This document shows positions 37,255 through 54,845 of a stretch of 64,000 nucleotides of DNA, in pieces; positions within the stretch are counted from its first letter, which is position 1; the number at the start of each line of letters is the position of its first letter. Location of the stretch: the NCBI GenBank assembly GCA_044463245.1, contig JBIQMO010000002.1:10338-74337 (forward strand), given 5' to 3'. Below the pieces are notes generated by a model. It ran no database searches, was not told where the DNA came from, and saw only the letters and a list, made by a program, of their open reading frames with translations. This DNA is from Gemmatimonas aurantiaca (GTDB taxonomy: Bacteria > Gemmatimonadota > Gemmatimonadetes > Gemmatimonadales > Gemmatimonadaceae). Position numbers and translations under genes: made by a program.

Positions 37255-37296
37255 GCCCCTGTAGCTCAGGTGGATAGAGCAGCGGTTTCCTAAACC
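37255..37296 (+). pseudogene. Truncated tRNA-Arg(CCU): 5' fragment only (acceptor 5' strand, D-arm, anticodon loop)
   Basis: GCCCCTG-TA-GCTC-AGGTGGATA-GAGC-A-GCGGT-TTCCTAA-ACC. Only 3 nt of the 3' anticodon stem are present, and there is no T-arm or 3' acceptor strand downstream. Confidence 0.7.
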
Positions 37297-37500
37297 CATA
37301 CCCTACCGAAGCGTCTGGTAGGGTATCTTGTTATGTGGCAATGTGTTGCCGTGGTGCTACCCCAGACTTAACCGTTGGCCTTGGGGTCAAACCTTGGGTA
37401 GCGTCCCCTCTTGGTTCCCGGTCGGGGGCGCCCCGCTAGCGCCGCACGCTCCGCCACGAGCGAGCTCGCCTGGGATGGCTCACCGCGTCCGCATCGCTTC

Positions 37501-37875
37501 GTGGTCATCCCTATTCCTGCGCCTGGGCGCCGGCTTGGTGGTCGGCCGGTGAACACTGGGGAGCTGACGGGCCTTGCCTGGCGTTCCACGCTGGGGCTGG
37601 CTCACGCTCACGGTGCGATGCTCGCCGACCCGATGCTGGCCACGCCGGAAGAGCCAACGCGGCTCGCAGCCACACTCGGGGCAGCGGTCTCCAGGCTGCC
37701 GCGACGCAGTGTGAGCGACTGGTTCGACGTGATGGCGCGCGTTCGCGCGGTAGGTCGTATCCTGCGGCCAGAGGACTACCGGTCAACGAGGGAGAGTTCC
37801 CTCGAAGAACTCACTGTGTGGATAGCGGAAAGTAGGAGGTTCGTAGTTGAGCAGCGCAGTCCGCGAACTCCCTAG
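37501..37875 (+). CDS. Hypothetical 124-aa protein, copy 1 of a duplicated gene
   Basis: Aligns end to end with ORF 45133-45507, with about 85 of 124 residues identical by hand alignment. GTG 37501 is the start equivalent to the copy-2 start. Confidence 0.5.
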   Translation: MVIPIPAPGRRLGGRPVNTGELTGLAWRSTLGLAHAHGAMLADPMLATPEEPTRLAATLGAAVSRLPRRSVSDWFDVMARVRAVGRILRPEDYRSTRESSLEELTVWIAESRRFVVEQRSPRTP

Positions 37876-37941: not shown

Positions 37942-40900
37942 CTAACGGCCTGCGCGCAGAGCGTGGAGTGCGGCGAGCGCGATGCGCTCGACATGATCGT
38001 CCGCTAGCGAGTCGAGCAACTGCTGCAGGGCGGTGCGAAGGTGAGAGCGCGTGGGTTCGTCGGCAGGTTGGGATCTCGACCCATCGGTGAGTTCGCGGTA
38101 TACCCGCCCGGCCCCTTCCGCCACGCCCATCCGCACCTCAGGTGACGAGGCGCGTGCGCTCGAAGCCAACTGGTTCAGTATGCACGCGCGTTCCTCCTCG
38201 CCGGCCACCGGAAGCAGTGTCGAGAGCCAGCCTATCGCGTAACGCTGGAGTCCGTCGGGCGTATGCCCTATCACCCTAACGCCGCTGGCGAGGGGGGATG
38301 CGAAATCGTCAAACCCGCCCATAGGGTGCAGTTCGCCACGCGCCGCAGTCTGAAGTGCGGAGATGGCATCCCGGAGTAGCGACGGCGTATCCTGCGCCAG
38401 AAGCGCAATGAACGGAATCCACATCCTGCGTTCCGTGAGCAAGTGCCCCGGCGTGAGCAGGAATTCGATCGCCGAAGCGAGGGCGCGCCGCCGGACTGGT
38501 TCGCTAGCACGGCTCGCGGCCCATCGGGTCATCGGCAACACATCACGGGCGCCCCCGCCGTATGACCCACTGCCAGCCTGTGCGCACAGGGCCTCGAGCA
38601 AGTCGGCTTGACTGTTGAGGTAGTGATCCGCGACCTCGCTCGGGACGTCAATGCCAGCGGCGAGCGCGCGCTCCACCTGGAGCCATTCCGCGACCGACCC
38701 GCCGTCCGGCTGGGCGCGTGCGGTGAGTTGTCCCCTCAGCCGCTCGCGCGCGGCACCGGTCGCACGAAGCGAGAGCATCGCGACCGCACCGACCCACTGC
38801 GGCTCCGCCCCTGCCGATTTCGCACGCTCCTCCTGCACCATCAGTGCGTCAGCGAGTGCAGCGCCGCCGTCTACCGGGGGCGGAGCGTTCGCTGCAGCGA
38901 CTGCGAAGGCGTTCAACACATCGTCGAGCTCTGTCGCAGGTGCAGAGGGAAGCAGGAGAACCACGGCATCGCGTACGTCTGCCGCCCCCTCTCCCTCGAG
39001 AGGCGGGTCGAGCTCAAGGATCAGGTCGATCGCCGCACCGGCGCCGTTGAGTTCCCGGCGCCTCGCCCACCCGAGGCCTAGGCCAGCAACGACCAAGTTG
39101 GCGATATGTCTGTCTCGGTCGGCGAACCGCCATCGGCTCGCGAGTAGGTTGGCGAAACGCAGAGCGCCGACGGTCGCCTCGGGAGAGTCAAGGTTGTCTG
39201 ACAACGCCTCCCAGAGCTTGGCAGTGAAGGCACCCGTCATCCGTTCGGCGATAACTGTGACAAACGCACTTACAGCACTCGAGTCGACGTCCTCTACGAG
39301 CGCGTAGGTGCGCGCCGTCTCGCGAATCGCAACCAGCATCGCGTCATCGAGAGGGGCCTCTACCACCGCGGCGCGCCATATCGCAGCGAGTAGGATCGTC
39401 GCCTCCTCGTGCGCGGCATGATCCGCGTCTTGGCCACTGAGCGCGAGGGCAGTCCGGGCGGCAACGTACGCCTCGTGTAATCGCCTTCGCCCGAGCAATT
39501 CGCGCGCACGACGCATCAGCCGTTCGTGCGTCGTTCGTTGCTTGATCGTGGCTTCCACGAGTGGCTCTAGCCCCGCCGCGAGCTTGCCGGGTCGGCGATC
39601 GCTGAGATCGATGAGGCCTGCTCGAACATCTGCCCGCTCCGCGTTTCGAAACGCGCGAAGAGCCGTGTAGAGGTCACCGTGCTCGAGAGCGTTCGTACCA
39701 GCCGCTCGAAATTGCTGGCCGGCTTCGCCATGGGCGCCAGAGGCGGTCTGGAGCCACGCCACCACGAGAGCGCGATCGGCATACATATGCTCCGGCACCG
39801 GCAGCTGTTGCGCAGCTGTAATGGCGCCGGCCGTATCGTCGTGCAGACCTGAATGCAATAGAGCCCGCAAGCGCGCGCATAGCACAGTCTCCACATCGCC
39901 GGCTCCCGCGCTGACGATCATGTCGGCGAGAGCGCTGTACGATTGTGCAGCGATAAGGTGGTCCTCAGCCACAGTGGCGGCCAATGCATTTAGCCGATGG
40001 GCCTCGAGTCTCAGAATGGGTGCGGCGTGCGCGTCCGCCGTGGCCGCTCGTTCGGCTAGGCGCGGCGCGAGCTCAGTCGCCTTCCTGGAGAACCCGGCCA
40101 GCGCTTCCGCCTCGGCTTCCAGCGCCTCCAGCGCCAATCTCGTGGCGTCTGGCAGGTCTTCGGTCCACAGACGCCGCTCCTCCGGGCGATCAGGGGCGCG
40201 CGACATACTGAGAGTCACCCTCGCCTTGTCACCATCGCGGAGCTCGTGAAGTATCCACTCGAGCACCTCCGCTAGTCGTTCTCCAGCCTTCGCCCGTTGG
40301 TTGCCGCGCACAAGCGCGCGAACCGCGATCTGGCCCGCCTCGGCGGCCTCATAGGGGAATCCTTCGGCGCGGAGTGATTGCGAGAGTTCCCACGCGCGGT
40401 CGCCCGCAACAGCATGGTCATTTTCTGTCCGAGCAGCGGTGATCGCCTCGTACATCGCCGCCTGCTCACGGGCAAGCGCATCCGGCAACGCGAGCCTTGC
40501 AGCGAGTGAAGGCGGAGCGGGAGTCGCGATGGCAGCGATTGCATCCGCAGCGCTTGCATCGAGTCGTTGGCTTGCCGGAACAGGAATCTTATAAGACTGC
40601 TCCGTCTCCTCGAACTCGCCTGAGCTCACTAGGGCCCAGAATGCCTGGCCGGTCTCAGGGTCGACGAGAGTAAGAACCACCGGCACGGCGTACTGGCGCC
40701 AATAGTGGACGGTTCGCTTGTCGATATAGACATTCCATCCACCGTCATAGCGATTGTGAAAGAAGGTGGCCCCGGCCTTGATCTGTACGCCGATAATACG
40801 GCCCGTACCCTCGCCAGAAGTCTGGTCAATTATTTCCAGGTGACCGTCGATGCCGATGTCGGCATACGGTTGCGGCCGGAAGACGAAGCCAAGTCCGCCG

Positions 40901-40986
40901 TCTATCCGCGGCCTGGCGACGATCGCGGTTGTCATTCCGACGCCGAAGAGTTCCGTACGAGAGTTGCCGATGTTCGGCAGTGTCAT
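37942..40986 (-). CDS. DUF4365-type (PD-(D/E)xK-like) nuclease domain fused to an ~850-aa HEAT/TPR-like alpha-solenoid
   Basis: N-terminus YADIGIDGHLEI...GRIIGVQIKAG (40777-40860). The remainder is Ala/Leu/Arg-rich helical repeats. I found no Walker A motif. Confidence 0.75.
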   Translation of the reverse strand: MTLPNIGNSRTELFGVGMTTAIVARPRIDGGLGFVFRPQPYADIGIDGHLEIIDQTSGEGTGRIIGVQIKAGATFFHNRYDGGWNVYIDKRTVHYWRQYAVPVVLTLVDPETGQAFWALVSSGEFEETEQSYKIPVPASQRLDASAADAIAAIATPAPPSLAARLALPDALAREQAAMYEAITAARTENDHAVAGDRAWELSQSLRAEGFPYEAAEAGQIAVRALVRGNQRAKAGERLAEVLEWILHELRDGDKARVTLSMSRAPDRPEERRLWTEDLPDATRLALEALEAEAEALAGFSRKATELAPRLAERAATADAHAAPILRLEAHRLNALAATVAEDHLIAAQSYSALADMIVSAGAGDVETVLCARLRALLHSGLHDDTAGAITAAQQLPVPEHMYADRALVVAWLQTASGAHGEAGQQFRAAGTNALEHGDLYTALRAFRNAERADVRAGLIDLSDRRPGKLAAGLEPLVEATIKQRTTHERLMRRARELLGRRRLHEAYVAARTALALSGQDADHAAHEEATILLAAIWRAAVVEAPLDDAMLVAIRETARTYALVEDVDSSAVSAFVTVIAERMTGAFTAKLWEALSDNLDSPEATVGALRFANLLASRWRFADRDRHIANLVVAGLGLGWARRRELNGAGAAIDLILELDPPLEGEGAADVRDAVVLLLPSAPATELDDVLNAFAVAAANAPPPVDGGAALADALMVQEERAKSAGAEPQWVGAVAMLSLRATGAARERLRGQLTARAQPDGGSVAEWLQVERALAAGIDVPSEVADHYLNSQADLLEALCAQAGSGSYGGGARDVLPMTRWAASRASEPVRRRALASAIEFLLTPGHLLTERRMWIPFIALLAQDTPSLLRDAISALQTAARGELHPMGGFDDFASPLASGVRVIGHTPDGLQRYAIGWLSTLLPVAGEEERACILNQLASSARASSPEVRMGVAEGAGRVYRELTDGSRSQPADEPTRSHLRTALQQLLDSLADDHVERIALAALHALRAGR

Positions 40987-41435
40987 TTCGCGGTTGGCTA
41001 GAGAGTCGCAGCAAACTACGTGTCATGTGTGACCGGCGGACCACCTTGTCGTTCCTATGCTGGGCCTCGAGTAGCAGCTCGTCTTCGGGCGCCAGGATCC
41101 TGGCCTTCGGCACCATCAGTCGCTTGATCATGCCTACGGCATGTCCTTACGATTCTTGCCTCGCAGGCCGTAAATCCACTCCTACTTGGGAGGCAGCGCC
41201 ATGCAGAGCAGGCTATCACGCTCGCTACTTCTGCCCACCATGGCAGCCCGCTAGCCGGCGACAGAGCAGCACCAGCCGGAAGCCGCATTACTCTGGCGGG
41301 CCTGGTAGCCGGGAGGTGGTCCCGGCTAGCGGAGCGCGCAGACAGTGCGCTTCGTCGCTGCCTGATATGCAACGTATGGCTGAGCAAGAGGCGCTGGCGC
41401 GCCTGCAGCGAGGTAGCGGGCGAGAATCGATGCAA

Positions 41436-42848
41436 TCACGTTTTGTGACCGTCTGCTACCGCGAGCATCAATTCTTCTCGCATCGCCCGCATTGCCAACC
41501 AGCGAAGTCGGGCGAGGTCCGCTTCTTCTGCCAGTGTGAGCCGGCTCTTTCCTCTGTGGACGATCTTCGAGCGAGTATCATAGATGCGACGAAAATCACG
41601 AAGGATATCCCTTCGTTGCTGTGCACTTTCCCCGACGAGGTACGCACATCGGTTGGCCAGGAGCTCCCCGAGGCCAACGATATCAGACAGCGCCTTGTCA
41701 CCGAGCAGAATCTCCAGTGCAATCGTCGCTTGGACGAACGCTATGAGCCGGTTCGGAACGACGAAGCTATCAAAGAGCCATTGGGCCGCGCCAAGAAAGC
41801 GAGTGCGATCCGTACTGCTGAAAGCCGAGCGTGTGTGAGCAAGATGGTCGCCTACTACGGCTCGTTGTACCGGGGGATCGAGCTCCATGAACGCCTCTTC
41901 ACAGCCGACGGATGCGATCTTGGTCGCGAGCAATGGCTCTAAGGAATGCCCGTATTCGGGGTGCCAGCGACTCGAGTCGCGACGATATATCATGACTTCT
42001 CTACCTTTCGGCGCGAAGAAGGTATGTCTGTCACTGCGTGCCACTCGGTGGGCAATCGCCAAACCGTGGTAGGATCGTATGGCGAGTATGAAGTCTTCTA
42101 ACGGCCGCGACATCCCCCACAGCCCTATGTACCCATCCACATCCGCGCTGAAATAGACGGCGTTGGCATCGAGTGGTCGCGGATCGGCCCCCGTGAGCAG
42201 AGTTCCACGGCGTGGGGTGGGTGGGAAGTGGGAGACGGTCGCGCCCAGCGTAACCAGGCGCGTCCGACTGTCAAACCAATACTCGGAGCCGCCCATCGCG
42301 TCACCCAACACTCTCCCGATCTCTTGGTCGACCGGCAGAAATAGCGTGTATTGCCAGGGCAACGACGCGAAATGCGTTATGAGCTCTTCAGCGGCTACTT
42401 CGGGCTTGCTATACTGCTCCACACTTGACAGTGGCGCATCATCGCTTGAGGCATCGAACTCTCTGGAGAAGAGGCTGCGCGAGATTTCCTCAAATACGAA
42501 CATCGATGCTGGCTTCTCACCGACATATGACTCGAGTTGCTGGCGAAGCGCGGTCTGCGGACCGGGCAGTATGTCGTCCAGGCGCGCCAAGCCCTGCGAC
42601 GATGCCACATCGATGAATCGACCGTTATTTACGCGAATGTTGCCCAACTCCTCAGCGAGACACCCTATCAGGCGACGGCGGGCTTCAACATGTAGTTCTA
42701 GGGGCATTACCAGATCGGAGTGCTCTCCTGCAGTGTAAGGAGCGTGGCGTACGCACGCGAGAAAACTTCCATTCTTCGCTAGGCTAAGATGCAGGTCGTG
42801 GCCGGAAGTCGCTAGGCAACCACTTCGTTGTCCTAGTTGGTACCGCAT
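41436..42848 (-). CDS. HEPN-domain protein (C-terminal Rx4H RNase-type motif) with unassigned N-terminal domain
   Basis: The C-terminal helical domain reads ALEILLGDK...RRIYDTRSKIVHRG (RSKIVH at 41556-41573). The start is ATG 42848 or ATG 42707. ORF-track start 43124 overlaps the divergent gene. Confidence 0.68.
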   Translation of the reverse strand: MRYQLGQRSGCLATSGHDLHLSLAKNGSFLACVRHAPYTAGEHSDLVMPLELHVEARRRLIGCLAEELGNIRVNNGRFIDVASSQGLARLDDILPGPQTALRQQLESYVGEKPASMFVFEEISRSLFSREFDASSDDAPLSSVEQYSKPEVAAEELITHFASLPWQYTLFLPVDQEIGRVLGDAMGGSEYWFDSRTRLVTLGATVSHFPPTPRRGTLLTGADPRPLDANAVYFSADVDGYIGLWGMSRPLEDFILAIRSYHGLAIAHRVARSDRHTFFAPKGREVMIYRRDSSRWHPEYGHSLEPLLATKIASVGCEEAFMELDPPVQRAVVGDHLAHTRSAFSSTDRTRFLGAAQWLFDSFVVPNRLIAFVQATIALEILLGDKALSDIVGLGELLANRCAYLVGESAQQRRDILRDFRRIYDTRSKIVHRGKSRLTLAEEADLARLRWLAMRAMREELMLAVADGHKT

Positions 42849-42857
42849 GGAGGGAGC

Positions 42858-44105
42858 ATGTTGAGATCTACCCGCAACCGCATGGCACTTACTCTGACAA
42901 TCACCACGCTCGCCTTGGCGCTTCCCTGCCGCTCCCGCGCTCAAGAGCGCTTCCGCGAGGTCGGCCGCCTCATCGCGGGAGGCGGGGCGATCGTCGTTCG
43001 CGCAAGTGGCTCTGGGTTCGTGGAGCTGCTCATGGCCTCTGGTCTCGCCGCGGCCGGAATCCGTGTCGATCCCGACTCCCTGGACTGGTGGCGCGACTCG
43101 GTCACAGTCATAGCGAAGCTGCAAGCGCCGCGCGAGCGCGGTCTAGAAGTGCAGTACGACGGTCCGGAGGTCCGGGGCATCAATCACTTCACGTCGCACG
43201 AGTCAGGGCGCCTCGGGTTCTTTCGCGTTGCCGGGGGAACATCGCCGGGGATGATCGTGAGCGTTCGCGAGATCGGCGGCTATCCCAGAGCCCACCTGAC
43301 AGTCACGTCACCACAGCTCGCGACGCTCACCAGATTGCTCGAGCAGGCGGCTCGCGTTACTCGTGACATGACACCAGCCCCAGTGCGGACAAGAGCGCCC
43401 GCACACAACGAGGGTATGTCGCGCGTATCCGCACCGTTGGAGATCGCCTCTACGGTTCCCCCGAACGAGCCCGCAGCCGGAGGGATCGTCGTGCGTACGG
43501 ATGGGGTGGACTTCCCATTCCCGGGCTACCTGGAAAATGTGGTGCGCCAGCTCGCTCTACGCTTCCTGCCGCCTGACAAGTCCACCGCGCGTCCCGAGGT
43601 GATGTTCCTCGTGCACCGCGACGGGTCCGTGTCCGATGTGCGTTTCCTCGTCCGCTCCGGTAGCATGGCGTTCGACCTCGAGGCGGAAGGTGCAGTCGAA
43701 CAGGCGGCCCAGGTGAAGGCCTTTGGCCCGCTCCCCGCCGGCTTCGCGGATGACGTGTTGCCTGTCGTTGCGACGCTCGGACATGGTGAGCGCGCCGAGG
43801 GGCCCACGTACTTCGAGTTTCAGGTGGACGTGCCCGCGCGTGCGGACCCAAGCAATCCCACCGTCCCGTACCCCGAGGTTCTCAGGCGCAACCGTGTCGA
43901 GGGTGACGTGCTGGCCCAATTCGTGGTCGATACGTCTGGGCGTGCAGAGATAGCGAGCTTCAAGGTGCTGAAGTCGACCGACGAGCTTTTTTCGGAAGCG
44001 CTCCTGCGCGCGCTCCCCTCGCTTCGCTTCATCGCGGCCGAGAAGGATGGCAGGAAGGTGCGACAGGTGGTGCAGATGCCCTATAGCTGGACGTTGCCGC
44101 GGTAG
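42858..44105 (+). CDS. Secreted protein with two TonB-C-terminal-like domains
   Basis: Signal peptide MLRSTRNRMALTLTITTLALALPCRSRAQ. Two TonB_C-like segments: PEVMFLVHRDGSVSDVRFL... and YPEVLRRNRVEGDVLAQFVVDTSGR... Confidence 0.6.
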   Translation: MLRSTRNRMALTLTITTLALALPCRSRAQERFREVGRLIAGGGAIVVRASGSGFVELLMASGLAAAGIRVDPDSLDWWRDSVTVIAKLQAPRERGLEVQYDGPEVRGINHFTSHESGRLGFFRVAGGTSPGMIVSVREIGGYPRAHLTVTSPQLATLTRLLEQAARVTRDMTPAPVRTRAPAHNEGMSRVSAPLEIASTVPPNEPAAGGIVVRTDGVDFPFPGYLENVVRQLALRFLPPDKSTARPEVMFLVHRDGSVSDVRFLVRSGSMAFDLEAEGAVEQAAQVKAFGPLPAGFADDVLPVVATLGHGERAEGPTYFEFQVDVPARADPSNPTVPYPEVLRRNRVEGDVLAQFVVDTSGRAEIASFKVLKSTDELFSEALLRALPSLRFIAAEKDGRKVRQVVQMPYSWTLPR

Positions 44106-44178: not shown

Positions 44179-44955
44179 CTAGCCTGGTCGCGTCGGCGAG
44201 CCGTGGCATCGCTTGTACTTCTTCCCGCTGCCGCACGGACAGGGATCGTTGCGCCCGAAGTGTTGTGGCGGGGGAAGCGCTGGTGGCGCGGCACCCTGTA
44301 TAACGGTCATGCCTGCGATGAACATTCCGGCTTGGCGTTCTACCCGCTTCGAGTAATCAGGTAGAAGCGTTATCAACGCCTCGTGAGCGATCTGGCGTAC
44401 GGCGGCTTTATCAGCTCCGCTCAGTGGTGTCTCCACGGTTCCGTCAGAATAGACCCACCCAAGCGAGTTCTGTCGAGAGAGTCTCGTATACGCCTCGTCC
44501 AAGCTCGGGTCTACGTGTGCGCCACCGTCCTGATTGGCGATGGCAAGAACCAAGTCGCGTCGCGAAAAGGGAGTTTTCCTGTCGTCAACGAAGACGGGTT
44601 CGGTCCACCACTTCGGAAATGGCATCCATCGCTTGTGGGGAACATCATCGAGCGAAGCTACGTACTCTGCACCACGATCCGAGAGGATTATGGTAGCGAG
44701 GCCCACATGGCCGTGCACCTCAGACCCATCAAGCGGGCTAGCTGTCGACAGGAATTGGCCGCCGAGGCGACCGAGCTGGCCGAGAAGGGAATGCGAGCTT
44801 CTCGTGTCGTGAAACAATACTCGCAGTGAGACGGCTAGGCGCTTGGCCTCACCGGTCTTGCCTGAATCAAACGCGTCCCCAGAGTCTCTGAGGAACTGAA
44901 TATGGTCAGCGAGGTGCGCCTCAAGGTCATCTTGTGACTGACTTATCCTAGCCAT
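44179..44955 (-). CDS. SEC-C motif-containing protein
   Basis: C-terminal [17 protein letters not shown]. The N-terminal ~220 aa are unassigned. Confidence 0.68.
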
Positions 44956-45132
44956 GGTGTATAGCCCGTTCCGTGGTGGCCTGTATGCCTGGAGGGATCT
45001 TCAGTGGGGAATTGCGGTGAGCTGCAGCTTGAGCAGTGTGGAGCCTATTCGTAGGGTGTGCAAGTGGCGTCTCCCGTCCGTACCGGCTATCGGCTACATT
45101 CGCGTAATGACTAGTCGCACCGGTAGCTCTAC

Positions 45133-45507
45133 GTGGTCATCCTGATTCCTGCACCAGGCCGACGTCCTGATGGCCGGCCGTTGAACACGAGAGAACTGAC
45201 GGATCTCGCGTGGCGTTCTACGTTGGGCCTGGCTCGAGGTCGCGGTGCGACGCTCGCTGACCCGATGCTAGCCACGCCGGAAGAGGCGACGCAGCTAGCA
45301 GCGGCACTCGGGTCAGCGATCCCCGGATTACCCGTCCGGAGTGTGAGCGAATGGATCGACGGGATGGCGCGCGCTCGCGCTGCCGGCCGTACGCCGCGGT
45401 CGGAAGACTACTGGTCCACGAGGGAGAGCACCCTCGAAGAGCTCGCGGAATGGATAGCAGAGAGCGAAGGGTTCACCGTAGAACTCCGCGGTCGGCGCGC
45501 CTCCTAG
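45133..45507 (+). CDS. Hypothetical 124-aa protein, copy 2 of the duplicated gene
   Basis: Paralogue of 37501-37875, with a GTG start. Confidence 0.5.
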   Translation: MVILIPAPGRRPDGRPLNTRELTDLAWRSTLGLARGRGATLADPMLATPEEATQLAAALGSAIPGLPVRSVSEWIDGMARARAAGRTPRSEDYWSTRESTLEELAEWIAESEGFTVELRGRRAS

Positions 45508-46158: not shown

Positions 46159-46180
46159 CCGGGATCCCTGTCGGGGATCC
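46159..46180 (+). repeat. GGGATCCCTGTCGGGG-family repeat copy (hairpin form GGATCCC-TGTC-GGGGATCC)
   Basis: Core at 46161-46176, in the spacer just downstream of the 46200-46664 gene. Confidence 0.85.
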
Positions 46181-46199
46181 GCCCGCACCGCGCTCCGTG

Positions 46200-46664
46200 T
46201 CACCACCACTCAGGGAGCCAACGGCCGGAGCACTCCATCCACAATCGCCGTTCCGCACCGCCGCGGTGCTCTCCAACGAGCTCGCCCAGGCGCACAATAC
46301 ACCTGGCGCAGTGCGTGCGTGAACGCGGGCGGCCATTCTCGACTGGTGGCACGCTCGCCGCGCACGCCTCGCAGATCTCGGCGCTCTCCCGCGTGGCGTC
46401 AGCCGCCACTCGATAGACGCGACCGACGCCCGAGTGGGGCGCGAGAGATATCACGAGCCGCGCCGCTTTCTGCCTCACATCGATGACGCTGACTCCCGGA
46501 GACTCGGCGACAGCACTGTACACCATTCGTAAGAGACCCCACCAACCCGGCCCGATGGCGGACAGCGCCCTGCCGAGGTGCCAGGGCGTGCCGTCGGGAT
46601 GGCGCAGCTCGAGCGTCTCATCCAGCGTGCTGTAGCGGTGACTCATGACGAAATTGTACCCCAT
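46200..46664 (-). CDS. Hypothetical protein with C-terminal Cys cluster
   Basis: 154 aa with GWWGLL..VIDVRQKAARLVISL and CEAC..HCARC. This resembles small phage/plasmid-borne proteins of unknown function. Confidence 0.45.
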   Translation of the reverse strand: MGYNFVMSHRYSTLDETLELRHPDGTPWHLGRALSAIGPGWWGLLRMVYSAVAESPGVSVIDVRQKAARLVISLAPHSGVGRVYRVAADATRESAEICEACAASVPPVENGRPRSRTHCARCIVRLGELVGEHRGGAERRLWMECSGRWLPEWW

Positions 46665-46697
46665 CCTGACCGCTCACCGCGCCGCCTTCGCCGACCA

Positions 46698-46745
46698 AGT
46701 GGGAATCATTCGGTGGCTTCGTTCCCGCCGCCACTAACAATACCC
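46698..46745 (+). repeat. Direct repeat S1 (partner S2 at 49518-49567)
   Basis: AGTGGGAATCATTCGGTGGCTTCGTTCCCGCCGCCACTAACAATACCCC against AGTGGAATCTTTCGCTGGCTTCGTTCCCGGCCGGCTCAAACAATACACCC. Hand alignment gives about 80-85 percent identity with small indels. Confidence 0.8.
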
Positions 46746-46933
46746 CACACCCCACGAGCTTACGGTCGCTTCGGCGTGTACTGCCAGCGTGCGCGTCGTG
46801 CGGTTGGCAGCGGGCCCTTGACGAATCAAGGTCCAGTCCGCATCGTTTCCGGGTCCTCGCTTCCGGCCCTCGGCGCAATTCAGCGTCGGCGCACGGTACC
46901 GTAGGACGTCACAGGCAGCTTGCCATTGCGGCT

Positions 46934-48136
46934 TTGCTTGCCAAGGAGATTGACGATATGCAAGAGCTTCGCCTTCCGGCGCAGCAGTTCCGCGCCATGC
47001 CAGCGCCCAACGGTAAGTCCCGTGTGGGCCTTTTTTACGTTCCAGTTGCTCAGGTACCCGCTGACCTGGCCAATTGGCGGGACGTAAATCCGCGCGAAGT
47101 GAACTCCCGGAGTTCCACGTACAAGTCCATCGTGGAGACGCTGACGGACGAACCGGAACGGTTTCACGAACGCAACCGTGGGATTACTGTCGTCGCCCAG
47201 GAGTTCGCCTACGACGACAAGAGGAAAGAGGTGGTGCTAGGACTTTCCGACAAGTCTCAGCACGGTGTGGTGGACGGATCACACACTCTGCACGCCATCC
47301 TCGCGACTCAGGCGTCACTGCCTGAGAGTGGCTGGCCCGCCCATGTGTTCGTGATTGCGAAGACTGGCATCGATCCGGAACAGATCGCGGAAGTCGCGGG
47401 TGGACTCAACACTAGCCAGCAGGTTGACCTGAAGAGCCTGGAGAACCTCCGGGATCACTTCGCCACCTTGCAGAAGGTGATTGCAGACCAGCCGTACGCG
47501 GACAAGATCGCGTACAAGATGAACGAGGCGAAACCTATCGATGTCCGCGAGGTGTTGTACTACCTGGCCGTGTTCGATGCTGAGGCGTACAACGGCAATC
47601 GACATCCCGTCGCGCTGTTCGGTCGCAAGGAAGGTATTGTTCGCGAGTTCGCCCGCCAGGCGGATGGTACGTCCTCGTCGAAGTCCTTCAAGATTCTTAC
47701 GTCCCGGACAGCGGACATCCTTCGTCTGCGCGACTTGATAGAGAAGAAGGCATTGGCCCTCAATGTCGGTCGGTACAAGGCAGGCAAGAAGGCACGCGTT
47801 CGCAGCGAGAGTAACCGCGAGAGCATGCTGTACTTCATCGATGAAAAGGTGAATGGCAAGATCCCTCTGGGGTGGATCATGCCGATGCTAGCGGCCTTCA
47901 GGGCAAACGTCGAGTGGAACAAGCCCAGGGGAACGTTCTCCTGGTCCGTGCCCACCGACGAGCTTCTGGAGCGCTCGATCGAACGCCTCGTAGCGGGGAT
48001 ACTGGAAGTTCATGACCAGGAGAACAGCCGCCCAGAGTTCGTAGGCCGGAATTCGATCGCGTGGCGTATGAGTTACGCTACTGTGTCGCAAGCCATCCTG
48101 GAGATGCAGCTGAGTAAGGAGCGTAGGCGCCACTAG
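46934..48136 (+). CDS. AIPR-like (abortive infection phage resistance family) protein
   Basis: FHERNRGITVVA ... HGVVDGSHTLHAI resembles the NNGIT / NGxQT core I recall for Pfam AIPR. 400 aa, TTG start, low-GC gene. Confidence 0.5.
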   Translation: MLAKEIDDMQELRLPAQQFRAMPAPNGKSRVGLFYVPVAQVPADLANWRDVNPREVNSRSSTYKSIVETLTDEPERFHERNRGITVVAQEFAYDDKRKEVVLGLSDKSQHGVVDGSHTLHAILATQASLPESGWPAHVFVIAKTGIDPEQIAEVAGGLNTSQQVDLKSLENLRDHFATLQKVIADQPYADKIAYKMNEAKPIDVREVLYYLAVFDAEAYNGNRHPVALFGRKEGIVREFARQADGTSSSKSFKILTSRTADILRLRDLIEKKALALNVGRYKAGKKARVRSESNRESMLYFIDEKVNGKIPLGWIMPMLAAFRANVEWNKPRGTFSWSVPTDELLERSIERLVAGILEVHDQENSRPEFVGRNSIAWRMSYATVSQAILEMQLSKERRRH

Positions 48137-48323
48137 TAGTGGTCGGTGTGAGGAGCGGCGCTAGCCTAATCGGCGCTGGCGCCGCTTCTGCACCTATGAA
48201 TTCGCGAGCGTGGTGGGCCGCATCCTGGCCGGGGCAATTCTCCTCGTCCGCTCCCTCAAATACCATCGCGTGCGCAACGCCAGGACTGACCTACTGGCCG
48301 AGGGTCAATCGCTCATCCGCGCC

Positions 48324-48653
48324 TTACCCATGCTTCGAGGTTTCAACAATCACGGGAGTCGGTGGCGGATATACGTAACCATCACCCGTGGTTGAGGTGA
48401 CGGCGAAGGTGAGATACACAGTGCGTGGGAGCAGATAGGTCTCGAGCTGATCCCTGAATCCCCGGAGTGTGATCTCGCCAGCCATAACCGTCGCTGCGTG
48501 AATCGTTGGCAACTCCACGCGAGCGTCGGCTCCTTCGCCGGACTTGATATCCAGCAGCACGCCGACCAGAGGGCGTGCACGGTTAGCATTCCGTCCGGTG
48601 ATCTGTAGCCGGACCGGCTGGCCGCGTGCGATCGAGTTAGATGCGAAACTCAC
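48324..48653 (-). CDS. Hypothetical protein
   Basis: 109-aa ORF with beta-rich composition, directly abutting the permease relic junction. Confidence 0.35.
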   Translation of the reverse strand: MSFASNSIARGQPVRLQITGRNANRARPLVGVLLDIKSGEGADARVELPTIHAATVMAGEITLRGFRDQLETYLLPRTVYLTFAVTSTTGDGYVYPPPTPVIVETSKHG

Positions 48654-48700
48654 GGAAGGTACGTCGATCAGTTCGTCGGACTTACCTTCTGCCTTGATTC

Positions 48701-49430
48701 CTACACCGTCCGGATACCAATCTCGCGCGTCCGACGCGCCACGCTCGCGGCGGTGACACTGAAGACCCCGACGACGGCCAGGACCACACCGAAGGCAGCG
48801 CCGACGCTCAGGAGGAACGCCACCGTTCGCAGCGGGTCAAGCGACTCATCCACGACATCCTCGACGGTGCGGATGGAGTACGCCGGCACGGTCGGGTCGA
48901 CGCTAGCTACAGCCTGCCGGACAGCCTGAACGAACTGGCCGTTGCGCACCGGACTACGAACGACGAAAGCGCATCGAGCGCGGCGGGTCGATGTACGTCG
49001 GCAGGTAGAACTGCCGAGCCACTCCCGCGAACCGTCGAGGGGGCGGCCGCGCACCGTGCGAACGACGCCGATGATCGTATACGCGCTGTCCCACGTCCGT
49101 CACCTTGATCTGCTGTCCCACGGCATCTTCTACCCGGCCGAGTCGGCGTGCCAGTTTCTCGTCCACGACCATCACCGGAGCTCCGTTCGCCACATCCGCC
49201 TCAGTGAAGCTGCGTCCGGCGAGTACCGGGATGCGAAGCGCATTGAAGTAGCCGGGGGATATCGCGAAGAACTGGGCGATCGGTGGGTTCGCCTGATTCG
49301 ACTGCTTCGGCCTGCCGACCACGTCGAACGTGAGCCCCGTTTGAGAGTGCGTGCGGTGGCGGTGCGTGCCAATCGCTCCGCGCTCGAACCCTGAGTTCTC
49401 ACTCCACGACGCAGCGACAATTGGGGCGCT
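48701..49430 (-). pseudogene. Relic of a MacB/FtsX-type (ADOP-like) ABC permease, frameshifted and truncated
   Basis: The MacB periplasmic-domain-like segment FFAISPGYFNALRIPVLAGRSFTEAD is in one frame. FLLSVGAAFGVVLAVVGVFSVTAASVARRTREIGIR is in another frame and ends abruptly at 48701, where FtsX domains normally continue with two more TM helices. Confidence 0.7.
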
Positions 49431-49517
49431 CTGTGCGCAGGAACGATCGTCGACAGCGCTGTGCATCCCCTCACGTTCGCTGTTGGGGAGTCGTGCATCA
49501 CGCTCGCCACCGGCCGG

Positions 49518-49567
49518 AGTGGAATCTTTCGCTGGCTTCGTTCCCGGCCGGCTCAAACAATACACCC
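49518..49567 (+). repeat. Direct repeat S2 (partner S1 at 46698-46745)
   Basis: See S1. It ends 20 nt before the integrase stop codon. Confidence 0.8.
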
Positions 49568-49586
49568 GTGTTCTACGAGAGTAGAC

Positions 49587-50531
49587 TTATGCAGCGGTCC
49601 CCACACGCTCGCGGCGATATACCAACGTCTGATCGACGCTCGCGTGGCGCATGTGGGCCATGACATCGATCGCCGGCACACCTGCCTCGAGAGCCGTGGT
49701 AGCGTAGGTGGCTCGCAGTGAGTGGCCAGAGAAGAGCTCTGGCTCGCATCCGGCACGCACTGCAGCAGCGCGGACGATATCGTCCACCGCGTCGGCGCTG
49801 AGGCTCGGGCGAAGCGTCCTGCCGCCCTTGTGAAGCCCGCGGAACACCGGCCCCTCCTTGATGTTCGCTGACTCGAGCCAGGCCGTCAGCAGGGTGGCTG
49901 GATTGATTCTCGGCGCCCAGGGGGCCACTCGCGCCACCTGCCACACGCCGATCCCGGTCTTATCGGCCTTCGAGCGCCGCACTAGCGCGCGCACGCTATC
50001 ACTGCCGATTCGCAGGTCTTCCACCATCAGTCCCACTACCTCGCTCTCGCGGAAAGCGCCGGCGAAGAGAAGGGAGAGCAGGGCTGCGTCACGCAGCCCT
50101 GCAAGCGTGTTCAGCGGGAGAGTGAGAATGGCGCGCGTGAGCTGCTCGCTGGTGAAGGCCTCGGCCTGGCGCTGGCCGCGTCCCACCGCCACGAGACGAC
50201 CGGCGCCGGCGGCGGTGTCCGCGGTCGCACTGTCTTCGAACGGGTCGATGCCAACCTCGCGGCGGAGCAGGCGCTTCACCGCGGCGCGGCGGACGGCGAG
50301 GGTCGCGCGTGCACACCCGGTGCCGATGTGGGCGGCGAGAAAGTCACGCACGACCTCACGCGCGCTGTCCTGATCACCCGGCAAGGGATCCCGACTGCCG
50401 GCAGCACACCAGTCAAGGTAGGCTCGCTCGGCGATGCCATACGCGCGCTTGGTGTTCGCTGCGAGCGCGGCGTCTGCAGCGTCTTGCGCGCTGGTAGTTG
50501 GAGTTGTAGGGAGGCTGATGCGCCGACTCAT
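49587..50531 (-). CDS. Tyrosine recombinase / phage-type integrase
   Basis: Catalytic C-terminal region AGAFRESEV (Arg), HSLRATYATTA (HxxR), MAHMRHAS and TLVYRRE (Tyr). 314 aa. Confidence 0.9.
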   Translation of the reverse strand: MSRRISLPTTPTTSAQDAADAALAANTKRAYGIAERAYLDWCAAGSRDPLPGDQDSAREVVRDFLAAHIGTGCARATLAVRRAAVKRLLRREVGIDPFEDSATADTAAGAGRLVAVGRGQRQAEAFTSEQLTRAILTLPLNTLAGLRDAALLSLLFAGAFRESEVVGLMVEDLRIGSDSVRALVRRSKADKTGIGVWQVARVAPWAPRINPATLLTAWLESANIKEGPVFRGLHKGGRTLRPSLSADAVDDIVRAAAVRAGCEPELFSGHSLRATYATTALEAGVPAIDVMAHMRHASVDQTLVYRRERVGTAA

Positions 50532-50669
50532 GGATTAGACCAGTGAAGGGGAGTTATCAGGAGTGATTACTAAGAGAGTACGGGGCAGCGAGCGTAGGGC
50601 CGACTACACGGGCTTCGACGGCGTGGAGTGGCTTAGGGTGCGATGGCGCGGCCGAGGGTACGCACCCTT

Positions 50670-50689
50670 CCCGGGATCCCTGTCGGGGG
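50670..50689 (+). repeat. GGGATCCCTGTCGGGG-family repeat copy (left arm of an 18-bp inverted pair)
   Basis: CCCGGGATCCCTGTCGGGGG. It is followed by CGACAG, which gives a local CTGTCG-GGGG-CGACAG hairpin. Confidence 0.9.
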
Positions 50690-51057
50690 CGACAGCGGAG
50701 CGAGGGCTACGGCGTCGGCCATGGCGCAGCGCACGCGATCGTGTGGTGTGCGTGGTGAGCGATTACCTTCCTCTTTCGGCAGTTGTTCGGGTGTCCACCA
50801 CGCCGAAGTCGATGGTACCGGCTACAGCAATCCCATGCGTCGCACCCGCTCAGTGCGTTCGCGCGCTCCGAGTGTGCGTGCGTCTGTCGGGGTCGCTTGA
50901 GGGTGCGGCTCGAAGATCGGCTCGATCTGGGGAATCGTTCGAGCCACGGTGTGGCGCTGGGCGGGAAGGTGCCGGAGGGCCGGCTGGTCGCTCGTGCTCT
51001 GGCAAGGTGTCAGAAAGTCGGTGGAGACTGGGGCGGATGGGGGTGTCGGGGTGGCTA

Positions 51058-51076
51058 CCCGACAGGGATCCCGGGG
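51058..51076 (-). repeat. GGGATCCCTGTCGGGG-family repeat copy (right arm of the inverted pair)
   Basis: CCCGACAGGGATCCCGGGG, preceded by GCTACC. It lies about 50 nt upstream of the methylase ATG. Confidence 0.9.
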
Positions 51077-51124
51077 CTGTGTGTGTGGCCGGGTACGCTA
51101 AGCGCGTTATCTTCCGGAGTGAAA

Positions 51125-52162
51125 ATGAGCGATTCGTATACCCATCCATCGCAGCTTCTGAACGCGCATCCCAAGGGGGTGCGGTGCGTCCACACAACGG
51201 AGCTCGGCGCCATCTATCAAGGCGACTGCCTGGCGTGGCTGCGCGCGCTTCCCGACGACTCCGTGGACCTGGTTTTCGCCGATCCGCCGTTCAACTTGAA
51301 CAAGGACTACGGGAAGGGCGTGTCGGACAAGATGAAGGACGACGAGTACCTCGCCTGGTCCTTCGGATGGCTGGACGAGTGCGTGCGAATTCTCGCTCCG
51401 GGCGGCGCGCTGATGGTATTCAATCTGCCGCGGTGGTGCATTGACTACGGAGCGCACTTGGGCGGCGCCGGACTGCTCTTCCGCCACTGGATCGCGTGCC
51501 GGATGCCCAAGAGCATGCCGATCCCGAAGCGCATGTCGCCGTCGCATTATGGGCTTCTGTACTACACGAAGGGCAAGCCGAAGACGTTCAACGTCGTGCG
51601 GCACCCCGTGCAGACGTGCCGCCATTGTGGTGGCGAGGTAAAGGACTACGGCGGGCACCGCGACAAGCTCAACCCTGCAGGGCTGAGGTTGCAGGACGTC
51701 TTCGACGCGCCAGACGAAGTGTGGGAGGACGCGCCGGACGCCCTGCCGCCCGGTGAAGCGTGGTCCAGACTCGACGAGATCTGGGACGACGTCCCGCCAG
51801 TGCGTCACGCACGATACAAGCACCGCGACGCTAACGCCCTCGCGCCGATCCTGCTGGAGCGCTGTATCGCTATGACGACCAACCCTGGCGACCTCGTACT
51901 TGATCCGTTCTGCGGCACCGGCACGACCGCCTACGCGGCGGAGCTGCTCGAGCGGCGCTGGCTCACAATCGAGCTAGGAGATACGACGCCGGCAATACAG
52001 CGTCTCACCGATTACGCCAACGGGGATCACCCCAAGTGGGAGACGGCGCGCGGCAAGGCGCGGGTGAACGGGGCGTCGCTGGATAGGCGCAAGCGGAAGA
52101 ACGGCCGGCGGGCCACCGATATCGAGCCAGAGCTGCCACTCGGAATCGAGGGGCGTGCATAG
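51125..52162 (+). CDS. Beta-class amino (N4-C/N6-A) DNA methyltransferase, M.BamHI-like
   Basis: [10 protein letters not shown] (motif IV) near the N-terminus and [10 protein letters not shown] (motif I) near the C-terminus. Convergent partner of a BamHI-like endonuclease. ATG 51125 is residue 115 of the ORF-track ORF. Confidence 0.85.
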
Positions 52163-52180
52163 GCGCAGACGCGCGCTAGG

Positions 52181-52792
52181 CTATCTCAGCGCGCGTCCGT
52201 CCGTGCCCTTCTTGATCCGCGGGACATCCATGCTGGTGTCGTCGTGCTCCACTACGAAAAGGCCGAGCACACCCTCCGCATCGACCGCACCGCGCCAGAA
52301 CGGGAGGAAGGGCGTGATCTCCTCGAAGTTGCCGACGCGATCGGTGAGGTAGCGATACAGGGCCCTCGTGGGTAGGATGACCGCGCCACCGGCCAGCCGC
52401 CCCTCTTTCATACCGAGGGAGATTTTGTTCAGCGAGCGATGCGTACTCGAGACGTTGCCAGTCTCCCACTCCAACGCGAAATAAGTGCTGCCGATTCCGT
52501 CCACCGTGATCGGCCGTAGCGCGTCGATCGGCCCCGTGCCCTTGCCGTAGCCGATTTTGTACCGCGCTTCAAGCTGCCAGCCGTACAGGTCTCGGAGTGT
52601 GGCCATGCAGGCCTGCTTGATCGGCACCACCCCATTCGCTTTAGGTTCAGGATAGATCGCGAACCTATCGTTACCCGGCGGCCACACCACGCGCGAGATG
52701 GCGTCCGCGATCTCGCCATACATGTCCTTCCACAAGTCGGACTCGGATAGCGCGCCCCTGCATATCAGTAGTTCCACGTGTACGAGTTTCAT
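52181..52792 (-). CDS. Type II restriction endonuclease, BamHI family
   Basis: 203 aa. NGVVPIK, GPIDAL, FALEWETGNVSSTHRSLNKISLGMK, YRYLTDRVGNFEEITPF and IKKGTDG run colinear with BamHI as I recall it (NGVVPIK, GPIDV, GMEFETGNISSAHRSMNKLLLGLK, YYLTDRVTNFEELEPYF, IPKGSDG). The catalytic Asp and Glu-x-Glu positions are kept. Confidence 0.87.
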   Translation of the reverse strand: MKLVHVELLICRGALSESDLWKDMYGEIADAISRVVWPPGNDRFAIYPEPKANGVVPIKQACMATLRDLYGWQLEARYKIGYGKGTGPIDALRPITVDGIGSTYFALEWETGNVSSTHRSLNKISLGMKEGRLAGGAVILPTRALYRYLTDRVGNFEEITPFLPFWRGAVDAEGVLGLFVVEHDDTSMDVPRIKKGTDGRALR

Positions 52793-52837
52793 GGGGCGAT
52801 GATGACATCAGGCGATCTCATCCGGAAGCCCACCCAC

Positions 52838-52851
52838 GGGATCCCTGTCGG
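52838..52851 (+). repeat. GGGATCCCTGTCGG repeat copy
   Basis: Lies in the spacer between the endonuclease start and the next gene. Shares an extended ~55-nt context with the 56972 copy. Confidence 0.85.
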
Positions 52852-52950
52852 TGGGACGTGGCACGGCAGAACGGCGTCAGAGATAGGGGAAGGCACCAGC
52901 GGAGACGGGAGGGAGAGTGACCGGAGCAAGCGCCAACCCGTCTCGCATGT

Positions 52951-53415
52951 ATGGAGCATCTTCGAGAGTTCTTTCGTCGGCACACGACGTTCACGGTTCG
53001 CGCGGCGCTCATCGCAATCGCGGTAGCCATCTTCGGTTGGCCGTACCTGCCGAGAGGATCCGCGCGAGAGAGGCTTGCAGGAACGGCGTGGATCCAGTTC
53101 CCCATTCCGATGGTCGCGGAGAAGCTGGTTTTGCGCAGCGATGGAACCGCCGAACACTCCTACCGTGAGCTCGAAGGGCAGGAGCGCTACCGCGCCCAGT
53201 CTGGGCTATGGTACCTCGCTCGTGGGGACAGTGTGCTCTGCTTTCAGCCCGTCTCCGACAGCGCCCTTCCAGACGGACTGGCGAAGTGTCGCGCATTTTG
53301 GTTCGATTCAGACGACAACGAAGAAGCGATGCACTGGGGGATCGGCGATACGTTGTCGTACATGGGCTTCGAGCGCGACTCCTACCGGGAGCACCGGGAT
53401 ACGACGGTGTACTGA
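52951..53415 (+). CDS. Hypothetical membrane-anchored protein
   Basis: 154 aa with an N-terminal hydrophobic segment AALIAIAVAIFGWPYL. Confidence 0.42.
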   Translation: MEHLREFFRRHTTFTVRAALIAIAVAIFGWPYLPRGSARERLAGTAWIQFPIPMVAEKLVLRSDGTAEHSYRELEGQERYRAQSGLWYLARGDSVLCFQPVSDSALPDGLAKCRAFWFDSDDNEEAMHWGIGDTLSYMGFERDSYREHRDTTVY

Positions 53416-53450
53416 GCGCGTTTCGCGCCCGATCCTCGTCATCTAACCTC

Positions 53451-53882
53451 ATGAATAAACCAGACCCGGGACCCGGTGGATGGGGGAGAGATTGGCGTGA
53501 CGCCAAGCCTCCGGAGAAGGACCCTCAGCTAGCCCGTATGGACGGCGCTTTGGGCGCAGGCTGCGTGATGATCGCGCTCGGGTTGCTTGCGACGTGCGGC
53601 ACACTGGTGTCGTCCGGATCCGGAGACAGCGCATCGCCGGAAGGTGCTCTAGCAGGCCTCATTTTCCTGGGAGGCGGCTTCCTGGCGTGGCGCTGGGCCG
53701 ACCGTATCGCCAAGCAGAGAGCTCGTGAGGAGCAAGCGGGTCGGCAGGCCGCGTTGGACGCGATTGACGGAGAAACGGAGGCCAGGCTGAAGCAGGTACG
53801 CGAGAGGGATTACCCACCGCGGCCATTCCCCTACAGGGCCCCTCAGCGACCGGAATCCAAACCGCCGTCCGAATCGGAATGA
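53451..53882 (+). CDS. Hypothetical membrane protein
   Basis: 143 aa from ATG 53451. Two hydrophobic segments (GAGCVMIALGLLATCG and LAGLIFLGGGFLAW) followed by a charged tail. Confidence 0.42.
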   Translation: MNKPDPGPGGWGRDWRDAKPPEKDPQLARMDGALGAGCVMIALGLLATCGTLVSSGSGDSASPEGALAGLIFLGGGFLAWRWADRIAKQRAREEQAGRQAALDAIDGETEARLKQVRERDYPPRPFPYRAPQRPESKPPSESE

Positions 53883-53937
53883 CGTTCCGCTGACGCGCCC
53901 CGGTATTGTGCGCCTCCGCCCTAACAGAGAGGATCAC

Positions 53938-54213
53938 ATGCCGAAGCCAGCACGCGCGCCGATCGTCGGTGAATCCGTCCATTTTTATGAGCACCGGCTC
54001 TCCGGCGAGTTCGGCCCGCTGGCAGCGCTCGTCACCTACGTTTCGCCAAGTGAGTGGCGCGTCAACCACGAAGGTTCGGTGCACCTCGCAGTGATAGGCG
54101 AGGCCACGGTGCGGCATATACCTGACGTGCCGTTCGACGATGGCGGTGCGTACGCCGGATGTTGGTGGCGGTGGCCCGAGGCGGTGGAGCGCGTCCACCA
54201 GAGCGGGTTGTAG
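53938..54213 (+). CDS. Hypothetical small protein
   Basis: 91 aa from ATG 53938, with AGAGGA upstream. Confidence 0.38.
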   Translation: MPKPARAPIVGESVHFYEHRLSGEFGPLAALVTYVSPSEWRVNHEGSVHLAVIGEATVRHIPDVPFDDGGAYAGCWWRWPEAVERVHQSGL

Positions 54214-54313
54214 CTCGGGATCTCTTTCGGCGAGCAGGGTCGGGCATGTCGTGCGGGCAGACAGGCGCAACACCCTTGCAGCCGGTACAGTGTCGGATGT
54301 GACACACTCAACG

Positions 54314-54832: not shown

Positions 54833-54845
54833 TCTGGTGTGCCCG

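Follow-up and report, generated by a model that had tools for sequence, protein, structure and literature searches.

Two adjacent genes on the minus strand of a 64,000-nt stretch of the Gemmatimonas aurantiaca genome (contig JBIQMO010000002.1, forward-strand positions 10,338 to 74,337; hereafter the window) raise the question of whether nuclease-like genes that lie side by side in a genomic island make up one defense system or two. Gene A encodes a large protein with an N-terminal DUF4365 nuclease domain and a long alpha-solenoid, and gene B a smaller protein with a C-terminal domain resembling HEPN ribonucleases. An initial annotation of this DNA had described the pair as a candidate two-gene defense module not matching any named system. 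Our analysis points to a different answer: A and B are probably two independent single-gene candidate abortive-infection systems that became neighbors by chance in an acquired island. The genes and the spacer between them are placed as follows, in window coordinates:

37942-40986, minus strand: gene A, DUF4365 nuclease plus alpha-solenoid, 1014 aa, intact, candidate defense protein acting alone (reading frame and translation)

40987-41435: B-A spacer, 449 bp (sequence)

41436-42707, minus strand: gene B, 423 aa, N-terminal alpha/beta domain plus C-terminal HEPN-like domain, candidate defense or toxin protein acting alone (start as in NCBI protein P0007)

The contexts of the two gene families were compared in both directions. 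The A family was represented by 13 loci (L001-L009, L152, L153, L155 and L156) that reduce to eight distinct contexts, five around DUF4365-type relatives (L001-L009), two around SIR2-type relatives (L152 and L155/L156) and one around a kinase-type relative (L153). The B family was represented by 70 loci, comprising 50 genome loci with up to 10 kb of flanking sequence (L010-L059), 15 IMG/VR contigs, prophage loci L060-L061, loci L062-L063 and one phage-plasmid. No B relative was found in any of the A-family loci (0/8 distinct contexts), and a six-frame search of the B loci with hidden Markov models (HMMs) of the A family, the DUF4365 head and the solenoid returned no match (0/70). Clustering of the genes within 5 kb of B in the 50 genome loci and the window revealed no conserved neighbor. 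An all-against-all comparison of the A-family contexts revealed none either, bar an HTH-M78 gene and a 242-aa gene whose sharing between two closely related contigs is ordinary synteny. Upstream of the closest A homologue (57% identity; L001) lies an unrelated 409-aa gene, which was considered as a cryptic analogue of B and dismissed, having no similarity and no Pfam match. In the window itself, A and B lie 449 bp apart, close to the ~450 bp first reported, and on the same strand; their GC contents at third codon positions (GC3) are 0.70 and 0.62, respectively. Because the families do not co-occur in either direction and neither has conserved neighbors, they are independent, and each family behaves as a unit of one gene. 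The two-gene module is thus not supported, and we rejected it on the very co-occurrence test that the initial annotation had suggested.

The reading frame of A was confirmed as intact, at the length first assigned to it and with the peptides quoted from it. An identical protein is present in NCBI/Logan (P0001), and relatives align with A over their full length at 32-57% identity. Its parts are:

40531-40893, minus strand: DUF4365/DREN PD-(D/E)xK domain, A residues 32-152 (Pfam PF14280)

40777-40860, minus strand: catalytic core DIGIDGHLEI...GVQIK, with D43, D47, E51, Q68 and K70 (translation)

37945-40494, minus strand: alpha-solenoid (HEAT/ARM-like), ~850 aa, residues 165-1014, presumed sensor and oligomerization region (AlphaFold2 [AF2] and Foldseek)

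Pfam PF14280 (DUF4365) matches residues 32-152 with an E-value of 9.9e-25 and 87.7 bits, against a cut-off of 24.3, in agreement with the PD-(D/E)xK assignment that had been made by inspection. The PADLOC Aga_REase model matches the N-terminal part only (E 2.2e-23), and solved DUF4365/DREN-APAZ chains from SPARDA systems match as well (9qbp/9qbq, E 4e-8; 9jsb, E 9e-4). D43, D47, Q68 and K70 are invariant in 19 of 19 DUF4365-type relatives and correspond to D41, Q60 and K62 of the DREN domain of NbaSPARDA, whose mutation abolishes or impairs nuclease activity (PMC12205087). On its own, that DREN domain is monomeric and no nuclease activity can be detected; tetramerization turns the activity on (PMC12205087). 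Profile matches and residue conservation thus identify the head of A as a DUF4365/DREN nuclease domain with intact catalytic residues.

The remainder of A, from residue ~165 to 1014, was predicted by AF2 as an all-helical, continuous solenoid with a predicted local distance difference test (pLDDT) score of ~90. Foldseek relates it to generic HEAT/ARM proteins only (CAND1, beta-catenin, condensin and importins; E ~1e-6, template modeling [TM] score ~0.2), which fits the helical HEAT/TPR-like repeats initially read from the sequence. The early observation that A has no Walker A motif also held: neither [AG]xxxxGK[ST] nor a relaxed pattern occurs in A or in any full-length relative, and A has no NTPase or STAND match in Pfam. 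Separately, positions 358-419 of the solenoid profile (A residues ~517-578) match the small mycobacterial proteins 4nss and 4zy7 (MSMEG_5817) at E ~5e-6 to ~1e-5 over about 60 residues; these matches may reflect Ala-rich composition.

A word-indexed search yielded only six full-length A relatives, and an exhaustive HMMER search with a solenoid-only profile was carried out against 1.84 billion cluster representatives. The solenoid family comprises 63 of these representatives, 40 of them at E <=1e-30, and is rare and previously undescribed. Full-length members fall into two size classes, one of ~1000 aa in which the solenoid starts at residue ~165, and one of ~1100-1260 aa in which it starts at residues 290-500. 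When the heads of 32 full-length members were classified with family-specific HMMs, 17 were DUF4365, 14 were SIR2 and one was neither. Pfam SIR2_2 was found at the N-terminus of all eight larger-class proteins tested (E 1e-19 to 1e-23), and the TTNYD motif and a His are invariant in the SIR2 heads. The head of the remaining member, P0149 (L153, 2143-5685), is a Ser/Thr kinase (Pkinase, E 5e-21); upstream of this gene lies a 467-aa gene without assigned function. In a neighbor-joining tree built from 853 solenoid positions, the SIR2 clade is nested among DUF4365 lineages and the kinase protein lies inside the SIR2 clade, a topology which indicates at least two exchanges of the head on a solenoid passed on by vertical inheritance. 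Swapping of suicide effectors while the sensor stays conserved is recognized as a hallmark of immune proteins, including Avs, CBASS effectors and Argonaute partners, among others.

The genomic settings of the solenoid family are varied and either mobile or conflict-related, with an IS1595 transposase, an HTH-M78 protein, HigB, YhaV/PrlF and a resolvase among the neighbors. Two related A homologues (P0004, L002 5291-7146; P0005, L004 6649-8507) have in common a divergent upstream gene pair, encoding a 242/243-aa protein without assignment and an HTH_31-Peptidase_M78 protein, that is 87-93% identical between the contigs. The pair probably represents synteny of close relatives and could be a regulator of that sub-lineage. 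A has no match in PHROGs, and no relative of its solenoid was found in the plasmid collection. A metagenome scan by DUF4365 patterns returned mostly unrelated DUF4365 proteins on short contigs.

Among characterized systems, the closest in design to A is DSR2, likewise a single polypeptide of ~1000 aa with an N-terminal suicide effector, a long HEAT-like alpha-solenoid and no NTPase. In DSR2, a SIR2 head is followed by a middle domain and a C-terminal solenoid of HEAT-like type; the solenoid traps the phage tail-tube protein, and the NADase is activated in the tetramer (PMC11850899). Whereas the head of DSR2 is SIR2 and that of A is DUF4365, 14 sister proteins of A place a SIR2 head on the A-type solenoid. 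The likeness does not extend to homology of the solenoid: PADLOC gave no Dsr2 match for A, and among the PDB chains the solenoid profile picks up none of DSR2. Matches of DSR2 PDB chains to the SIR2-type relatives of A are restricted to the SIR2 domain, as are the PADLOC matches to these relatives (ThsA, PDC-S25, and weakly Dsr1/Dsr2). Membership of A in DSR1/DSR2 was therefore rejected, there being no homology outside SIR2.

The nuclease head invites a second comparison, with the DREN-APAZ protein of SPARDA, which has the same DUF4365/DREN PD-(D/E)xK domain and the same D...QxK residues. By this analogy, the effector of A is likely an oligomerization-dependent collateral nuclease. A differs in having no APAZ, however, and the PADLOC Aga_REase-PNTD model aligns at positions 26-149 of 429 only. 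SPARDA senses by guide RNA and target DNA, whereas sensing by A would use a protein solenoid. No Argonaute gene lies close to A: the neighboring B, TonB_C and SEC-C proteins have no Piwi or PADLOC prokaryotic Argonaute (pAgo) match. The possibility that A is a DREN-APAZ protein and B a short pAgo was accordingly discarded, given the missing APAZ in A and the missing Piwi/pAgo match in B. A modular, swappable N-terminal effector on a large repeat sensor is also a feature of Avs/STAND proteins, in which effectors (nuclease, SIR2 and others) are joined to a repeat sensor that recognizes phage proteins, as described in part in PMC12803255 and otherwise generally known. Avs/STAND proteins carry a P-loop NTPase between effector and sensor, which is found neither in A nor in its full-length relatives, and on this ground a STAND/Avs assignment was rejected.

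Gene B presents a separate problem, beginning with its extent. Followed to the first possible start codon, its upstream reading frame spans 41436-43124 on the minus strand, and the initial annotation had placed the start at 42848 (470 aa). The start MPLELH at 42707, which gives 423 aa, is that of the NCBI call (P0007) and of 103 aligned homologues. Most likely, then, B starts at 42707 and is 423 aa long; the strand and the C-terminus first quoted, ...ALEILLGDK...RRIYDTRSKIVHRG, are as originally given. The B family comprises at least 129 homologues of ~410-450 aa. The AF2 model of B (pLDDT 94.7) divides the protein into a mixed alpha/beta region (residues 1-275) and a helical C-terminus, located as follows:

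41883-42707, minus strand: B N-terminal alpha/beta domain, residues 1-275, presumed sensor (AF2 secondary structure)

41439-41876, minus strand: B C-terminal helical HEPN-like domain, residues 278-423 (AF2 and conservation)

41556-41573, minus strand: Rx4H motif RSKIVH, R379-H384 (translation)

The N-terminal domain carries a conserved LPWxY motif at residues 116-120. Used as a lone query for swapped effectors in a word-indexed search of limited recall, it retrieved only seven proteins, all with the same architecture as B. Foldseek found no significant match to the fold of B, N-terminal domain included, in the PDB or BFVD. Searches of Pfam, PADLOC, NCBIfam and PHROGs gave no meaningful match to B, the best in PHROGs being a single insignificant one (E 0.32), and nothing useful came from NCBIfam or from sequence searches of the PDB.

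The C-terminal ~130 aa are the best-conserved part of the family. In 104 sequences with an overall identity of only ~30%, R379 and H384 do not vary and S380 is retained in at least 90%; E332, R353 and R365 are also invariant, and N352 is nearly so (>=90%). AF2 places C-terminal helices at residues 278-297, 301-316, 320-335, 346-358, 362-385 and 392-422. RSKIVH ends the helix 362-385 and is followed by a loop (386-391) and the long helix 392-422; invariant E332 stands at the end of helix 320-335, after which comes an inserted helix (346-358). In the published HEPN layout, which has a core of four helices, the motif ends helix-3, an acidic residue lies in helix-2 and an insert separates helices 2 and 3 (Anantharaman et al., PMC3710099). 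As judged by secondary structure rather than by superposition, B shows this topology, together with the Rx4-6H spacing and the polar residue after R that characterize the HEPN motif. Several B homologues are labeled 'HEPN domain-containing' or 'Apea-like HEPN' by NCBI and UniRef, and no NCBIfam model matches these homologues. The HEPN claim of the initial annotation thus stands as to the invariant motif and the HEPN-like topology, but no HEPN profile reaches significance. On motif and predicted topology, the C-terminus of B is likely a HEPN domain.

The contexts of B are largely those of phages and mobile elements. In Cupriavidus oxalaticus (L060), a B homologue adjoins the gene for the portal protein in a P2-like prophage, which is represented again by L138, its genes 100% identical. 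A different P2-like prophage, at L139, has a portal protein with 60% identity to that of the first, and here too B lies directly beside the portal gene. This portal-side position is the published P2 defense hotspot, the cos-proximal gpA-gpQ site that serves as a reservoir of anti-phage systems (Rousset et al., PMC9122126). Further B homologues are carried by 15 IMG/VR viral contigs, by a Klebsiella phage-plasmid, where the gene is inserted in the opposite orientation, and by an integrase-bearing element or island, and others lie near RHS, AAA_13 and HNH genes. A tblastn search of the phage collection yielded no B relative. In L060, the B homologue is followed by a gene (9415-10968) for a 517-aa protein with a faint CorA-like C-terminal match; this gene is missing from L139 and hence is not a conserved partner of B, and it may be further hotspot cargo.

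B finds its nearest functional parallel in ApeA, also encoded by a single gene without a conserved partner, with a C-terminal HEPN domain (in B, a HEPN-like one) bearing Rx4H and an N-terminal region free of homology. ApeA acts in abortive infection by cleaving the anticodon loop of tRNA; it oligomerizes, and a small-molecule product of infection binds a pocket between its domains (bioRxiv 10.64898/2026.01.26.701840). The two proteins differ in size and fold, ApeA being ~580 aa and mainly helical with N, Mid and split-HEPN parts, whereas B has 423 aa and a mixed alpha/beta domain at its N-terminus. The N-terminal region of ApeA serves as a sensor, a role that is only presumed for that of B. 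Because B is smaller, has a different N-terminal fold and matches no PADLOC model, it is not a member of ApeA, and by analogy would at most work like it. B probably represents a new family of single-protein HEPN defense genes, a class already known. The initial view that the architecture matches no named system is thus correct insofar as PADLOC-DB v2, one of the searches it had proposed, covers only the nuclease head of A (Aga_REase), with no model for the A solenoid or for B. As a general statement it was too strong, since A has the design of DSR2 and B that of ApeA.

These comparisons suggest how each protein might act. A would be a one-polypeptide sensor-effector without an NTPase. By analogy with DSR2, its ~850-aa solenoid would bind a macromolecule specific to infection, in all likelihood a protein of the phage. 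Binding would shift the conformation or oligomeric state of A and bring the N-terminal DUF4365/DREN domains together, and the juxtaposed domains, as in SPARDA, would cleave nucleic acids indiscriminately (collateral cleavage), killing or arresting the cell and so aborting the infection. For A, the sequences themselves establish the domains, the preserved active-site residues, the lack of an NTPase and the exchange of heads; the ligand, assembly and protective phenotype proposed for it are all drawn from DSR2 and SPARDA. B would be a separate, single-protein HEPN-type RNase in which the ~275-aa N-terminal domain senses infection and releases the RNase, as in ApeA; its trigger, assembly, RNA substrate and protective effect are likewise postulated from that analogy.

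Three other explanations have to be set against this one. Were A and B an obligate two-gene system, a DNase, a solenoid sensor and a HEPN RNase would act together; the genes are adjacent on the same strand with nothing convincing encoded between them, they share a low-GC segment bracketed by a 300-nt direct repeat, and two-nuclease combinations are generally known to be common in defense systems. This is nevertheless very unlikely in view of the separate distributions described above: the eight A-family contexts hold no B relative, the 70 B loci hold no A, DUF4365 or solenoid relative, B has no conserved neighbor at all, the gene upstream of the closest A homologue is unrelated to B, and the 449-bp gap and differing GC3 point to separate origins. 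A could instead be non-immune, a scaffold or nuclease of a mobile element or of the host (in DNA processing, repair or addiction), its SIR2 and kinase relatives being signaling or regulatory proteins. HEAT/ARM solenoids are generic protein-binding scaffolds, one relative has a Ser/Thr kinase head, one SIR2-type relative lies among ECF-sigma, FecR and TonB-receptor genes, and no defense model matches the A solenoid. We consider a non-immune role improbable, because the family is exceedingly rare (63 of 1.84 billion cluster representatives), has a patchy distribution and lacks conserved neighbors, its heads (the DREN nuclease and the ThsA/DSR-type SIR2, with intact catalytic residues) are classic suicide effectors of defense systems, and the genes around it include toxin-antitoxin modules, an insertion sequence (IS) element, a resolvase and restriction-modification (R-M)/AIPR genes.

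For B, the competing possibility is that it is a toxin or a phage-encoded factor for superinfection exclusion or inter-phage competition, or that its C-terminus is a non-catalytic HEPN mimic. The frequent location of B in prophages, viral contigs and a phage-plasmid, and the lack of a significant HEPN profile or a structural match, speak for it. Yet the cargo of prophage hotspots is usually anti-phage (PMC9122126), so that the first alternative amounts for the most part to defense viewed from the standpoint of the phage; and the invariance of R379 and H384 at ~30% overall identity, together with the predicted position of the motif at the canonical end of helix-3 and the invariant upstream Glu, argues for catalysis. 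We regard this explanation, too, as unlikely.

Two independent single-gene abortive-infection candidates therefore remain our preferred reading, and a defense role is reasonable for each gene, but several results weigh against it. No PADLOC v2 model recognizes the A solenoid and none matches B at E up to 1. Foldseek provides no specific structural relative of the A solenoid, and DSR2 is absent from its top 50 results, so that the analogy with DSR2 is architectural only, at the level of fold class. Residues 1-81 of A have pLDDT <50 in the AF2 model; the nuclease head is badly modeled because the alignment held only six sequences. The kinase head found on one relative is not an obvious suicide effector. 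For B, Pfam HEPN_Apea matches two relatives below threshold (E 0.19 and 0.081), and the HEPN proteins that Foldseek returns, 2hsb and RnlA, are weak (E >2). The A-family sample consists of eight contexts, several of them on short contigs, and the physical adjacency of A and B in this genome could allow functional cross-talk. A bolder extension, which we put forward tentatively as quite possible, is that the A solenoid defines a family of bacterial pattern-recognition receptors, new and NTPase-independent, whose conserved ~850-aa HEAT/ARM-like sensor was coupled at least three times, to DREN, SIR2 and kinase effectors; that the DSR2 design would thus have been invented a second time and independently, with a phage trigger of its own; and that B is a new HEPN family with a new sensor fold, spread by P2-like hotspots.

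The surroundings of the two genes bear on how they arrived. GC content is 0.59-0.63 over 40-49 kb against 0.66-0.71 elsewhere in the window, and the GC3 values of A and B compare with 0.79-0.91 in core genes (two-component and others) to the left. The low GC and GC3 mark the segment holding A and B as foreign DNA, and this segment is a horizontally acquired island. The spacer between the genes contains no composition-supported reading frame and no convincing terminator or promoter. A tRNA-like fragment and the neighboring genes are listed here; the gene calls agree with the precomputed annotation of the contig:

37255-37297, plus strand: truncated tRNA-like 5' fragment, ~43 nt, at the island's left border; not a functional tRNA gene (sequence read)

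42837-44105, plus strand: TonB_C protein, 422 aa, with two TonB C-terminal-type domains

44179-44955, minus strand: SEC-C-motif protein, 258 aa; SEC-C zinc motif at the C-terminus, N-terminal region without assignment

46934-48136: AIPR gene

48954-50531: MacB fragment (truncated periplasmic-domain reading frame) and tyrosine integrase (minus strand)

50783-52792: N6_N4 DNA methylase and BamHI-family endonuclease, convergent

58965-60473: Rep_1 protein

The initial annotation had spoken of a low-GC, tRNA-linked island with AIPR-like and R-M genes nearby. The low GC and the neighboring AIPR, N6_N4 methylase and BamHI-family endonuclease genes were all recovered, and the tRNA link reduces to the 5' fragment at the left border. 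Acceptor stem, D arm and CCU anticodon loop can be recognized in this fragment, which then ends abruptly; no intact tRNA gene was found in the window by ARAGORN or Rfam, nor a T-loop motif anywhere in it. An intact tRNA integration site was rejected on these searches, and the fragment may be what an integration or a deletion left behind. As a side observation, the methylase and endonuclease are likely a type II R-M pair on an integrative element (window 49587-52792).

Two repeats were also noted. A 300-nt direct repeat with 76% identity (37475-37774 and 45107-45406, plus strand) flanks a 7.6-kb segment holding A, B and the TonB_C and SEC-C genes. Its copies lie inside paralogous small reading frames (37411-37875 and 45133-45507; 70% amino acid identity), one of which has a faint DUF7739 match, and the repeat may point to tandem modules or be the scar of a recombination. 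Eight copies of the 14-nt motif GGGATCCCTGTCGG are present, in both orientations and with at most one mismatch, where 0.08 would be expected by chance. All eight sites fall within 46161-57301 (46.1-57.3 kb), mostly between genes, and conservation spans ~16-18 nt only. The motif includes a BamHI site (GGATCC) and shares its region with the gene for the BamHI-family endonuclease; an operator, a short palindromic repeat and a recombination site are possible interpretations.

For the scanning of genomes, this locus offers a caution, in that two adjacent defense-like genes in an island are not evidence of a system. To our knowledge, DSR2 is the only well-understood immune protein that combines a solenoid with an effector and needs no NTPase. 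If A is protective, its solenoid would be a new sensor family among the few proteins of this kind, and it would show whether induced oligomerization generally activates DREN nucleases outside Argonaute systems. The occurrence of nuclease, NADase and kinase variants on one solenoid would also provide a natural system for studying how a ligand signal is transmitted to unrelated effectors. B would extend the ApeA-type class in which one protein carries its own sensor and a HEPN RNase, with an N-terminal fold that is confidently predicted and has no structural relative in the PDB or BFVD, and its presence in P2 hotspots eases testing.

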